IMG/VR virus record: IMGVR_UViG_3300009509_000003
DNA length: 64,000 nt
Strand: one strand, 5' to 3'
DNA from: an uncultured virus (IMG/VR IMGVR_UViG_3300009509_000003)
Lineage: Duplodnaviria; Heunggongvirae; Uroviricota; Caudoviricetes
Positions 8,261 through 27,000 of this stretch are shown here, one piece after another. The notes beneath the pieces were generated by a model. The model was not told where the DNA came from, searched no databases, and saw nothing but the letters and a program-made list of their open reading frames with translations. The translations under genes were made by a program, and so were the position numbers. Position 1 is the stretch's first letter, and each line of letters begins with the position of its first letter.

Positions 8261-8458
8261 CTAGTATCCCCGTCCTTTTACCGTCGCATCGATCAGCGAG
8301 ACGTTGGTGATGTGAGGCTTCGATTCCAGCTCCGCGGCGCGCTCGCGCGCGACCTCGGCGTTTTCACATACCCAACACTCGTTGGTCTTGGTCGACGTGT
8401 TGTAAAACGTCACAACCGGAATCGTGCCGAATTGGCTGACTTCGAGGTACGCTATCAT
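8261..8458 (-). CDS. hypothetical protein
   Basis: start MIAYLEV behind conserved hairpin and SD. Confidence 0.6.
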   Translation of the reverse strand: MIAYLEVSQFGTIPVVTFYNTSTKTNECWVCENAEVARERAAELESKPHITNVSLIDATVKGRGY

Positions 8459-8470
8459 CTCACTCTCCCT

Positions 8471-8488
8471 TCGGGGAAGCATCCCCGA
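8471..8488 (-). promoter_or_regulatory. conserved pre-RBS hairpin without adjacent promoter
   Basis: TCGGGGA-TGCT-TCCCCGA followed by AGGGAG. Confidence 0.7.
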
Positions 8489-8528
8489 TCCTACTCTCTA
8501 GACGCGCTTCGCAGCGCGAGCCTGACAG

Positions 8529-8987
8529 CTACAGCTCCAACTTCTTGACGAGCGCCATGATGGCGTCATTGTTGAGCCACAGCCCACCATGGCGACGCGA
8601 CACGTGTATGTTGTCGCAGGGGTCGCCGTCCTCATCCACAACCGGCACACCGAGCCCGAGGAAAGCTTGGAGGTCTCGAGCGATGGCGTCGATTCGGGCG
8701 CGCTCCTTGGCAGCCTCATCCCGCTCCGCGCGCATCTCATCGGTGATGTAGCGCCAGCGGGCGTGGGCGTAGCCGGCGTTCTCGATGCGCCCTTGCGCTC
8801 GGAGGCGTTTGAGAGCGGAGCGAATGTTGGATTCGCTGTAAGGATAGTCGCAGTACGACTTTCCGTGCACGCGCTTGTTCGCGTAGTACCGAATGTACTT
8901 CACGGCGCCGTGGTGGTTGTCCTCGATAATGGACTCGAGAACGTGCTGATCCATGGTCGACTGTTCGTCTCTAGATAATTGCGCCAT
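8529..8987 (-). CDS. hypothetical, winged-helix-like protein
   Basis: SESNIRSALKRLRAQGRIE...ARWRY; first gene after promoter. Confidence 0.55.
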   Translation of the reverse strand: MAQLSRDEQSTMDQHVLESIIEDNHHGAVKYIRYYANKRVHGKSYCDYPYSESNIRSALKRLRAQGRIENAGYAHARWRYITDEMRAERDEAAKERARIDAIARDLQAFLGLGVPVVDEDGDPCDNIHVSRRHGGLWLNNDAIMALVKKLEL

Positions 8988-8997
8988 CGTCTCTCCT

Positions 8998-9064
8998 TCG
9001 GGGAAGCATCCCCGACCCATACAATGAGCATGACACGGCTTTGATCCGTTGTCAATCGCAAACG
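8998..9064 (-). promoter_or_regulatory. repeated early-type promoter plus leader hairpin
   Basis: CGTTTGCGA-TTGACA-N17-CATGCT, then TCGGGGA-TGCT-TCCCCGA; near-identical at 13.4 and 27.0 kb. Confidence 0.85.
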
Positions 9065-9107
9065 TTGAGGGTCGTGCATTTTTGTGGGTCTATGTAGGTG
9101 TGTGTCG

Positions 9108-9476
9108 CTATTTCCAGGGGCGTGGGAGCACTACGACAGGGTCTGCTTCGGCCGGCGTCCAGTAAGGGACTGGTGGGCACTCGTCCGGGATTTCGATGAC
9201 TCGCCTGACCGCGCTCGAGAGCGCATGGACGGGGCCGCCCTCACCATCGTAGCGCTCGACCAGAAATCTCCCTAGGAAGGGCAGGTGCTGGACCACGACG
9301 TAGAGGTTCGCCAGCGTCGACTCGGAGCCGTGACCCTTCAGCGGACGCTTGCACTCGAACACGATCCCTTCCGGGAGGATGAACTCTTGCCCCGCCTCGA
9401 GAGCCGCGTTTGCTTGAGCGAGGATGACCGACTTCAAGTAGGTCTTCCCGGCGTAGGTGGCGTAGGGACTAGACAT
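9108..9476 (-). CDS. hypothetical protein
   Basis: start MSSPYAT overlapping the amidase stop. Confidence 0.5.
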   Translation of the reverse strand: MSSPYATYAGKTYLKSVILAQANAALEAGQEFILPEGIVFECKRPLKGHGSESTLANLYVVVQHLPFLGRFLVERYDGEGGPVHALSSAVRRVIEIPDECPPVPYWTPAEADPVVVLPRPWK

Positions 9477-24600: not shown

Positions 24601-24648
24601 GAGTTTTCCTCCCAGACATCTCGAAGATACATCGTAGGGCGATCGAAA

Positions 24649-24879
24649 TCAATCCGGCTTGAACCGGGCTACTGAGACGAGATCGGGATTCGTGGGCTCG
24701 AGAAGCACTGACAGCTCGGAGCCCTGCTCGAACCGTGTCGCGTGCTCGGAGCACAGGTATATCTCGTAGTGGATGAACCCCCGGCAGGGGGGCGTCATGA
24801 CATAGGCGTCGCAGACGTAGCTGGGTAGCTCGAAACAGTCTTCAGCCTGGCATACGAGGGTTGTGGTGTCGTCGGGCAT
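24649..24879 (-). CDS. small Zn-binding protein
   Basis: CQAEDC...LCSEH. Confidence 0.5.
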   Translation of the reverse strand: MPDDTTTLVCQAEDCFELPSYVCDAYVMTPPCRGFIHYEIYLCSEHATRFEQGSELSVLLEPTNPDLVSVARFKPD

Positions 24880-24882
24880 GAG

Positions 24883-25479
24883 CTAGCGCAGTGTGACCCC
24901 TTCAGGAGGCTCCAAATGCTTCGCAATGAGAGCCGCAAGCGCTGGTCGGAACGTCTTGTACGTGAGCCACGGATCCAAACGCTTTATGGAATTCGAGATC
25001 ATCACCGTCGCCAAGTCCTGAGCCGCCTGGTCTCGATACACTGTGCGAGCGCCTCCAGCCTCTTCCAAACCCTGACGCTGCTCGTCGGTGAAGATTTCGG
25101 GCCCGGCGGGCTCACTCGATTCACCGATCGTCTTGCCCGAGACCTTGCCCTGGTACTTCGCCGGAAGCAGGTCATCGTAGTTACCGAACTTCGCCTCCCC
25201 CTCGAACTCGTCGCGCAAGTCTTTGGCCGCCATCATCCGGATCTTCTTGGGGAACGTGTCAGACCACTTCCCGCCGCCGTGCTCCCGCACGTAGTTCTTC
25301 GCGCCCGAATCGGCCATGTTCAGGAAAGCTTTCACCGCCTTTTCGCTGGAGTACTGTCCGCGAGCATGCTTCGTCATGAGTGCTTTGCGTATTGCTACCA
25401 TCTGCTGATGGAGACGGCCCGTATTGTTGACGTGCATCACCAGCTCGGCTGCCACCGACTCGTCACTCTCGAATCCCAT
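24883..25479 (-). CDS. putative internal head protein
   Basis: MGFES, IGES and GLEEA linkers around basic modules. Confidence 0.6.
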   Translation of the reverse strand: MGFESDESVAAELVMHVNNTGRLHQQMVAIRKALMTKHARGQYSSEKAVKAFLNMADSGAKNYVREHGGGKWSDTFPKKIRMMAAKDLRDEFEGEAKFGNYDDLLPAKYQGKVSGKTIGESSEPAGPEIFTDEQRQGLEEAGGARTVYRDQAAQDLATVMISNSIKRLDPWLTYKTFRPALAALIAKHLEPPEGVTLR

Positions 25480-25518
25480 TCGTTGCCTCCGATCTCCCTA
25501 CGAACTTACTTCGTCGAC

Positions 25519-26706
25519 CTACTTTTTACAAGCGTACTCATGCGCCTTGACCTTCTTCGTCGGGTCGTAGTTGCGCACCGTTGGTTCGATCCAACAGAAG
25601 TACCAGGACGTTCCCTTGGGGCTCTCTGGTGTCTTGCGGCCCTTCCACTGTCGTCGCCAATGCCCGCGCACCAAGACGTTCGCCACCGCTTTACGGGGCC
25701 CTCTGACGCCGATCTCGCGCACAGCCGCCTTGACTTCAGGGCTGACCACGACGCGAGAGCCCACAACCCACACCGGCTCTTTCTCGAGGCGTTCGATCTG
25801 CGCCTTGACGCGCCGGGTCTTCTTGCCCTTGCGAAGCTTTCGGATGCGCCCCTCGTTGGCGTGCTCGATATCGGCCGCCGGCGCGTTGATGTAGAGCAAG
25901 AAGTTGATGACGAACGACCGCAGGAGTCGACGAATGCTGTTGTTGTCGTACACGGCTCCCATGATCGTTCCGAGAGGTTTCCGGCCCGCGCCGCCGAGCC
26001 CGGCCTCGATGAGCACCTCTTCGTCTGATGCCACCATCTCCTCCACAGACTTCGTCTCGTCGAACAACGGGACGGAGAAGTAGAAGATGTGGTCGTCCTC
26101 GGGGTCGACAGAGTGCTCGTTGGGCTCGCAGTGCATGACCAAGAGCAGCCGCCGCCCGCAGTTATACGCCGGGTGGTAATCCTTCTCGTGCGTGTAGCCT
26201 TCACTAACCGCGACTGCTCGTACCTCGTGCTCGCCCGTGTGCTCGTTGTAGAGCGTCAAGAACCCCGCCGGGATCGAGATGTAGAAGCCGGGGAATGGCA
26301 TCTTCACGTCCCCGGGCCTCACGCCGGTAAGCTGGGTGCCGAACAGCGAGTAGGCGAGGTCTTCCCGCAGCTCGAACCACGCAGGGGTGTCACTCTTCGC
26401 CAGAGCCCTCGACACCGAAAACGCCAGCGCAGCGTTGAGCATCGTGCTGCTGTCCATTCCTTGGGATAGAACGTTGAGCATCTTGAAATTGTCGTAGAGA
26501 ACGAACCTAGGATCGAGGAAGTCACCGATCCAACTCAGCTCGTCCACGTCGGGCACGCGCTCGTCGAACACTCGCAGGAAAGCTTGGGTCCGCAGGGCGT
26601 TCATGAGGCGGTAGACGGACTCCCCGCGCGTCCAGCGGGCGAAGATCGCAGAGTTCAGGCGTTTGAACTCTGCGTCGGATATGCGGGGTACGTATCTCAC
26701 CACCAC
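25519..26706 (-). CDS. hypothetical phage protein with C-terminal VRGHWR motif
   Basis: 395 aa; INFLLYIN...VRGHWRRQW...WIEP. Confidence 0.7.
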   Translation of the reverse strand: MVVRYVPRISDAEFKRLNSAIFARWTRGESVYRLMNALRTQAFLRVFDERVPDVDELSWIGDFLDPRFVLYDNFKMLNVLSQGMDSSTMLNAALAFSVSRALAKSDTPAWFELREDLAYSLFGTQLTGVRPGDVKMPFPGFYISIPAGFLTLYNEHTGEHEVRAVAVSEGYTHEKDYHPAYNCGRRLLLVMHCEPNEHSVDPEDDHIFYFSVPLFDETKSVEEMVASDEEVLIEAGLGGAGRKPLGTIMGAVYDNNSIRRLLRSFVINFLLYINAPAADIEHANEGRIRKLRKGKKTRRVKAQIERLEKEPVWVVGSRVVVSPEVKAAVREIGVRGPRKAVANVLVRGHWRRQWKGRKTPESPKGTSWYFCWIEPTVRNYDPTKKVKAHEYACKK

Positions 26707-26921
26707 TCGTGCTCCAACTCTTCGATGATCGTGACCATGTCGGGGCCGCCGGCCTTGAGCCAGCGGTCGTAGTCAAGACGATCGTACTTGTCGTTACCGA
26801 TCCACCCGCCGTCGAACCACTCGTCCTCGATCGGGCGCTCCATGCAGTCCTCGGGCACGATGACGCGCGCTTCGGCGTCATGGTCCAAGGTCATATCTAC
26901 GGCACGAAAAAAGTAGTTCAT
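26697..26921 (-). CDS. small acidic protein
   Basis: start MNYFFR behind hairpin and SD. Confidence 0.6.
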   Translation of the reverse strand: MNYFFRAVDMTLDHDAEARVIVPEDCMERPIEDEWFDGGWIGNDKYDRLDYDRWLKAGGPDMVTIIEELEHEWW

Positions 26922-26933
26922 CTCACTCTCCCT

Positions 26934-27000
26934 TCGGGGAAGCATCCCCGATCCACACAACAAGCATGACACGGCTTTGATCCGTTGTCAATCGCAAACG
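26934..27000 (-). promoter_or_regulatory. repeated early-type promoter plus leader hairpin
   Basis: CGTTTGCGA-TTGACA-N17-CATGCT; TCGGGGA-TGCT-TCCCCGA. Confidence 0.85.

Follow-up and report, generated by a model that had tools for sequence, protein, structure and literature searches.

The window analyzed here is a 64,000-nucleotide (nt) stretch of an uncultured virus of the Caudoviricetes (IMG/VR record IMGVR_UViG_3300009509_000003) and forms part of G000, an incomplete virus record of 134.5 kb. On its minus strand lie six hairpins with stems of 7 base pairs (bp), each followed directly by the AGG of a Shine-Dalgarno (SD) sequence (Table 1). The hairpins were listed in an initial annotation of this DNA, the stems, loops, and coordinates of which are all exact; three different, perfectly paired stems occur among the six copies, as that annotation held. 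The ATG that it placed 10–13 nt downstream follows at distances of 12, 13, 12, 10, 10, and 12 nt, read from the copy at 26951 to the copy at 8471. These six are the only places in the window where a perfect 7-bp hairpin with a 4–5-nt loop precedes AGG and ATG, and 100 dinucleotide-shuffled versions of the window contain no such unit. The predicted pairing probability of the hairpin is 0.80–0.97 in all six leaders. A comparison with Rfam, also proposed at the outset, matches no family to any hairpin: at the gathering score the window yields tRNA alone, and at E ≤ 10 on eight loci nothing falls over a hairpin.

Table 1 Hairpins, promoter motifs, and a candidate regulator gene in the window (aa, amino acids)
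Feature	Position	Strand	Details
Hairpin 1, TCGGGGA-TGCT-TCCCCGA	26934..26951	-	SD next; ATG at 26921; 74-aa gene, no family
Hairpin 2, TGGTCGA-TGCT-TCGACCA	21282..21299	-	ATG at 21268; heads a run of genes, among them the conserved 165-aa gene (20550-21047) and a cysteine-rich gene (20215-20550)
Hairpin 3, TCGGGGA-TGTT-TCCCCGA	18719..18736	-	ATG at 18706; 124-aa gene, hairpin-led in four records
Hairpin 4, TCGCGGT-TGCT-ACCGCGA	13347..13364	-	ATG at 13336
Hairpin 5, TCGGGGA-TGCT-TCCCCGA	8998..9015	-	ATG at 8987; leads the 152-aa gene
Hairpin 6, TCGGGGA-TGCT-TCCCCGA	8471..8488	-	ATG at 8458
Sigma70-type promoter motif of hairpin 1	26963..27001	-	Upstream ACGTTTGCGA; -35 TTGACA at 26991; -10 CATGCT 26968-26963
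Sigma70-type promoter motif of hairpin 2	21309..21347	-	Sequence motif
Sigma70-type promoter motif of hairpin 3	18749..18787	-	Sequence motif; -10 TAGCGT
Sigma70-type promoter motif of hairpin 4	13376..13414	-	Sequence motif
Sigma70-type promoter motif of hairpin 5	9027..9065	-	Sequence motif
Promoter-like motif of the extracytoplasmic-function (ECF) type ahead of hairpin 6, TGTCAGG-N16-CGTC	8501..8527	-	Sequence motif
152-aa gene led by hairpin 5	8529..8987	-	Predicted PadR/MecI-like winged-helix protein; Foldseek E 0.007, probability 1.00

Five of the hairpins start 9–12 nt after a motif in which TTGACA and a hexamer (CATGCT or TAGCGT) are separated by 17 nt, with a conserved CGTTTG(C/G) upstream; the promoters annotated ahead of these five copies are thus present as motifs at all of them. 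The promoters of hairpins 1, 4, and 5 (26991, 13404, and 9055) are identical over 32–39 nt (36–39 nt between that of hairpin 1 and the other two), yet two different stems follow. Hairpins 1 and 6 share an identical 37-nt block of hairpin, SD, and start codon under different promoter types. The copy at 8471 had been described as lacking an evident promoter, a description contradicted by the ECF-type motif at 8527–8501. This putative promoter resembles the ECF41 signature TGTCACA-n16-CGTC (PMC3426412). Its spacing recurs, by pattern, before three copies in relatives (two in G001 and one in L082), and a variant form precedes a fourth in L069. Sites of the form TGTC(A/C)GR-N16-CGTC lie at 8527–8501 (minus strand) in the window, at L020:12529 and 16770, upstream of 5565 (minus strand) in L082, and upstream of 4162 in L069; the phage motif always stands at the end of a first gene led by a sigma70-type promoter and hairpin. 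A canonical hairpin accompanies 7 of the 23 best promoter-like sites of G000, as ranked by a matrix seeded on such sites. A second promoter subclass of G000, with CTAT(G/A)TGGTA before the end of the -10 box, mostly lacks a hairpin (genome positions 45523, 36079, 68470, 55195, 60018, 69240, 41476, and 94641).

The element is not confined to this record. On G000 a covariance model of the copies returns nine sites at E ≤ 0.004, all of them in coding-strand leaders, and the next match is not below E 0.38. Outside the window, G000 carries three further canonical copies, with loops AGCG, CGTG, and CGCTC, and two degenerate ones. A search with the tubulin/FtsZ-family gene at 29235–30563 of the window (minus strand), which is conserved at 56–83% in seven viral records, led to seven loci; the closest records, G001 and G002 (83%), share the promoter class and contain 10 and 15 copies, respectively. 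G002 carries T4-type head, sheath, UvsX, and polymerase genes, and its capsid protein is at most 37% identical to that of any deposited phage. The more distant G016, which was found through the endolysin and encodes proteins 26–58% identical, contains 12 copies, among which further stems occur. G012, G013, and 17 of 56 metagenome loci outside G001 came from pattern scans; among all 60 loci of the metagenome scan, four belong to G001, 17 are true cassettes, 38 look like chance matches, and L043, which has an SD without a promoter, was excluded. A looser pattern gave 23 stretches; 14 came from new records, and of these stretches 13 are not cassettes and one (L170) is a true copy, the same as a G016 site. 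Three matches to a combined promoter and loop pattern were rejected as none is paired, and the exact UGYU pattern has no match in viral_contigs. No credible copy was found in G003–G007 or G015, all incomplete, where the best model match has E ≥ 0.05; direct scans of G004 and G007 agree. Searches for host clues yielded none. The curated family comprises 83 copies in 18 records, nine of them in G000, after removal of duplicates (G011, G014, G017, L058, L076, L094, and L170). Also excluded are the degenerate G000 copies, one with an 8-nt loop (promoter at genome position 33935) and one with a 6-bp stem (promoter at genome position 47659), and a promoterless hairpin with an A-C mismatch in G016 (41525).

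Across these 83 copies, the element consists of a stem of 7 bp (rarely 8) out to G016 and a loop of 4 or 5 nt, and it touches the SD. Pair 1 is U-A in 77 copies, A-U in five, and never G-C; pairs 2–6 are mostly G-C or C-G and flip between copies; the loop-closing pair 7 is A-U in 79. There are 31 loop sequences, with G second in 81 copies and an A-N-G tip in 78; none belongs to the GNRA or UNCG class, and one is CUUG. The UGCU loop, which had been taken as conserved, is merely the commonest loop of this genome. The stem exists in 27 variants, and taken together the copies show changes at each of the seven pairs. When the first 70 copies are aligned by loop length (39 and 31 copies), 273 of 273 and 216 of 217 cells pair in copies that had been chosen for pairing, and two-sided changes occur at five and six of the seven pairs, above all shuffles and slides. 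Less circular evidence for covariation comes from the 165-aa gene, one orthologous gene preceded by four different perfect stems. Stem defects read on the mRNA strand comprise eight G-U cells in six stem variants, two G-A, and no A-C, in scans that did not favor G-U; six G-U variant types against none has a chance of about 1/64 by coin toss. Compensatory changes at seven pairs, different stems at an orthologous site, G-U but not A-C defects, fixed polarity with transcription, and the lack of stray copies in G000 together support a cis-acting RNA hairpin. The RNA element proposed in the initial annotation is therefore supported, although both arguments given for it, the UGCU loop and the promoterless copy at 8471, fail. 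An upstream AUG within the hairpin was considered and rejected, as it is not kept (ACG and AAG variants occur).

The hairpin keeps a close relation to both the promoter and the SD. Among the 72 copies with a sigma70-type promoter, 68 begin 7–12 nt after the -10 box, and three free 5' nucleotides are predicted in 31. In 69 of 70 copies, no more than 2 nt separate the end of the stem from the start of the best match to the anti-SD, and in 45 of 70 this match starts on the last A of the stem. Promoter-anchored scans of G001 and G002 that did not require an SD revealed no 7-bp copy detached from one, and about five copies placed far inside their leaders, after a long stem or another hairpin, still touch the SD. 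It is to translation initiation that the hairpin is tied more tightly. No U-tract follows the stem at any copy; the SD is found there instead. A longer stem of 18–20 bp with G-U pairs occurs in three records (window 18244–18285, minus strand; L021 ~2105–2150; L025 ~13205–13255), where a conserved stretch, TTGCCTCCGA...TACCA, comes before it; in G001 and G002 it is followed by a 7-bp leader hairpin. Tandem or partly duplicated hairpins share one leader at L050:3290–3337 and L046:5760–5809, where the intact hairpin adjoins the SD.

The proteins encoded downstream of the 83 copies sort into 60 families; their median length is about 124 aa, and nearly all lack a known family. One hairpin-led gene, in G016, encodes an anti-restriction protein (phrog_7245, E 3e-11), and a DUF6011 gene is hairpin-led in all four records that have it, including G016; none was found in G002. 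Where a common upstream open reading frame defines a syntenic site, the gene after the hairpin differs at 10 of 12 sites, and a homolog of the 152-aa gene sits behind another cassette in G012, likewise led by a hairpin. The cassette is likely also a recombination joint for gene swapping, by analogy with the promoter early stem-loop (PeSL) cassettes discussed below. Contigs of run X1 match the window; one joint (8491/13375) skips 4883 bases between two cassettes with a 30-letter side, and it is most simply explained by the repeated cassette at 26951, matched in two parts.

Several known systems resemble this arrangement. In the cited accounts, PeSL cassettes of T4-type phages likewise place a repeated sigma70-like promoter, a stem-loop, and an SD before variable small genes (PMC2839356, PMC4122927), and the near-identical promoter blocks, the gene swaps at cassette boundaries, and the T4-type head gene set of G002 strengthen the likeness. 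As described there, PeSL stems vary in position, in most cases lie within the promoter or overlap it, and terminate upstream transcription, and a subclass has its stem-loop downstream of the -10 box (PMC2839356, PMC4122927; subclass, PMC2839356). In contrast, the present element is a single fixed 7-bp stem that lies wholly in the predicted transcript, lacks a U-tract, and touches the SD. The 5' untranslated region motifs of Aca1 and Aca2 are covarying hairpins of ~20 nt right after the transcription start site (a predicted site here) of phage accessory operons, with several operons per genome (PMC13551039); here, an anti-defense gene and a predicted winged-helix gene are among those led by hairpins. 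The Aca1 motif is reported to have a bulged stem that ends ~20 nt before the start codon and the Aca2 motif two hairpins (PMC13551039), whereas in the present phages binding is a prediction, no aca or acr gene was identified, and no inverted-repeat operator conserved over the promoter was noticed. CsrA/RsmA operators, according to the cited work, also place a hairpin with an A-N-G tip just 5' of the SD (PMC7652899). However, GGA occurs in none of the nine G000 loops and in six of 83 overall, CsrA was found in none of the six records searched, and the stems are longer than the SELEX ligands described there (PMC7652899). In G016 (L140–L148), 5 of 12 leader hairpins read CsrA-type ANGGA, unlike those of the window's clade. 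The start-associated (SAS) and extended start-associated (ESAS) sequences and the Cluster O and EG repeats of actinophages are also start-linked and precede non-structural genes, with 7-bp arms in Cluster O (PMC3203893, PMC4351075, PMC7302621); as reported, they are conserved in sequence, and those of Cluster O are unoriented, whereas here pairing is conserved over 27 stem variants, all oriented with transcription. Stabilizers of the Bacillus subtilis aprE type place a stem near the 5' end beside a strong ribosome-binding site (RBS) (PMC3997798), but the present element differs in being multicopy and of fixed size, in leaving 5' nucleotides free, and in occurring at some internal positions. 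In T4, RegA sites are described as unstructured and the gp43 operator as single (PMC3014915). A literature search, the scope of which excluded most subscription papers and supplements (including the Aca motif lists of PMC13551039), found no description of the motif. The motif is new and well bounded; its architecture of promoter, stem-loop, and SD before swappable genes is already known.

By analogy with the Aca1 and Aca2 leader hairpins, we favor a model in which the hairpin is a translational operator for a putative phage regulator protein, with a probability of a little under 40%. According to this model, the promoter motifs would fire and transcripts would start 2–6 nt before the stem, which would fold in the mRNA. 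A putative, probably phage-encoded protein would then bind the stem through its shape and A-N-G tip, and binding would block ribosome loading on many genes at once; both the repression and the early expression of these accessory genes are predictions of the model. What it has to accommodate, namely the sequence, position, covariation, polarity, and spread of the element, is established. An operator is favored over a simple barrier because of the fixed size, the weak closing pair, the A-N-G tip, the strict SD contact, and the use on a subset of promoters. Indeed, the hairpin shows no tuning for stability: the closing pair is a weak A-U, extra-stable loops are absent, and the length is fixed across distant relatives. 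Precedents in the cited accounts are Aca1, which binds one ~20-nt hairpin just after the transcription start site, Aca2, which blocks ribosome binding (PMC13551039), and CsrA, which connects the loop of a hairpin with the SD (PMC7652899).

A number of observations weigh against this model. The nearly 100% pairing is partly circular because of how copies were chosen, and SD adjacency was also a criterion in most scans. A C-to-T bias on the non-template strand could likewise produce the excess of G-U. On a spanning tree, constraint on the second loop G is modest (P 0.06 for loop-unbiased records and 0.02 for all, uncorrected) and the lower variability of the terminal pairs is not significant (P about 0.1); the loop tolerates 31 sequences and two lengths. 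Features common to the copies may reflect ancestry spread by cassette copying, as the 32–39-nt identical promoters suggest. With regard to the binding partner, the 152-aa winged-helix protein is a candidate regulator on the basis of its structural model (pLDDT 72, from two sequences, with no Foldseek match at E ≤ 0.001), but tblastn detects no homolog in G001, G002, or G016. A CsrA gene was found in none of six records, the MerR-type helix-turn-helix protein of G002 is also present in the motif-less G004 and G007, and the candidate 165-aa protein, which has 263 relatives, matches no solved fold in Foldseek. Binding of Aca1 itself, in the report cited, gave no translational silencing in reporters (PMC13551039). 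The ESM Atlas offered no usable match for two hairpin-linked proteins, and general Pfam and PHROG scans of 163 G000 proteins and 88+20 others, which include no dedicated Acr library, named no Aca or Acr family. An antisense RNA acting in trans was rejected, as the only complement, of 11 nt, lies inside a gene at ~48000 of the window and is near chance level.

Two alternatives require no partner, and together they outweigh the operator. It is possible, though doubtful, that the hairpin stabilizes the 5' end, with the stem and a ribosome on the adjoining SD shielding the early mRNA from 5'-dependent decay. The proximity of most sigma70-type copies to the predicted 5' end, the tolerance of any pair type, and the predicted folding at about -11 kcal/mol fit this explanation, and a 5' hairpin, RBS, or bound protein is reported to stabilize Bacillus mRNA (PMC3997798). 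However, the 2–6 free nucleotides, often with G second, suit the preference of RppH given in the same source (PMC3997798), copies behind an 18–20-bp 5' stem would add no 5' protection, and neither extra-stable loops nor a strong closing pair is present. About equally doubtful is an enhancer or insulator read by the ribosome. Here the hairpin would raise initiation by holding upstream RNA away from the SD, and it may stack against the SD–anti-SD helix or rest on the 30S platform. This would account for the absence of any gap to the SD, the frequent sharing of the stem's last A with the SD match, and a bottom pair that is never G-C, and the phages carry translation genes (PTH2, RF-1-like, deformylase, and KhpA in G000; bS21 in G002). 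Yet the predicted accessibility of the SD is just 0.18–0.76 in the six window leaders, the second loop G is left unexplained, and no precedent was found in the literature.

We regard it as improbable that the element is a palindromic operator in DNA, or that it is neutral, left over from cassette copying with its perfect pairing maintained by template switching from arm to arm. The changes are for the most part flips of a whole pair by transversion (C-G to G-C), and copying of one arm from the other makes such flips in one step. The 7-bp inverted repeats near start codons in Cluster O and EG actinophages provide a parallel (PMC4351075, PMC7302621), but the account cited describes actinophage repeats that do not vary, have no orientation, and often lie within genes (PMC4351075), whereas here the arms covary, the loop is polar, the mRNA strand carries the G-U defects, and even the distant G016 keeps the size and position. 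Very unlikely is a transcription-level element acting in the nascent RNA through pausing, promoter escape, or antitermination. The fixed size and promoter-proximal position behind two promoter types would suit such a role, but it offers no reason for the strict SD contact. Judged by the features of boxB and put, moreover, the leaders have no conserved boxA-like element or second stem, and terminator-like sites between 8000 and 27500 of the window are at chance (16 versus 15.5). Among the roles initially offered, a regulator site and a 5' stabilizer remain viable, while antitermination and processing are without support.

The translational operator, if correct, would mean that in large lytic-type phages Aca-type control at the RNA level reaches beyond single anti-CRISPR operons to a regulon spanning the genome, and it would point to an as yet unrecognized RNA-binding regulator. 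It is tempting to speculate, tentatively, that the whole accessory program runs through one shape-read RNA operator, with one protein or the ribosome reading the 7-bp stem and A-N-G tip at the SD, such that any gene behind the cassette would join the translational regulon under a housekeeping or an ECF-type stress promoter. A partner-free element would instead provide a compact natural expression part with a ready table of tolerated variants. In both cases, the motif would mark likely early host-takeover genes among proteins without a known family.

Other genes of these phages bear on RNA and translation. A tRNA-Ile with anticodon AAU, which is unusual in bacteria, lies at 23619–23694 of the window (minus strand), just upstream of the PTH2 gene. 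The translation and RNA genes of G000 encode KhpA, peptide deformylase, Ro60/TROVE, RF-1-like, and PTH2 proteins, and their loci are L005:6263–6532 (minus strand), L005:11718–12377 (minus strand), L006:2972–4573 (plus strand), and window 15464–15937 and 23308–23658. The bS21 gene of G002 is found at L030:2941–3222. At L008:6064–6462 (minus strand), a weak match to the Acb2/Tad1-hairpin domain (E 1e-5, below the cut-off) suggests a possible anti-defense sponge gene.

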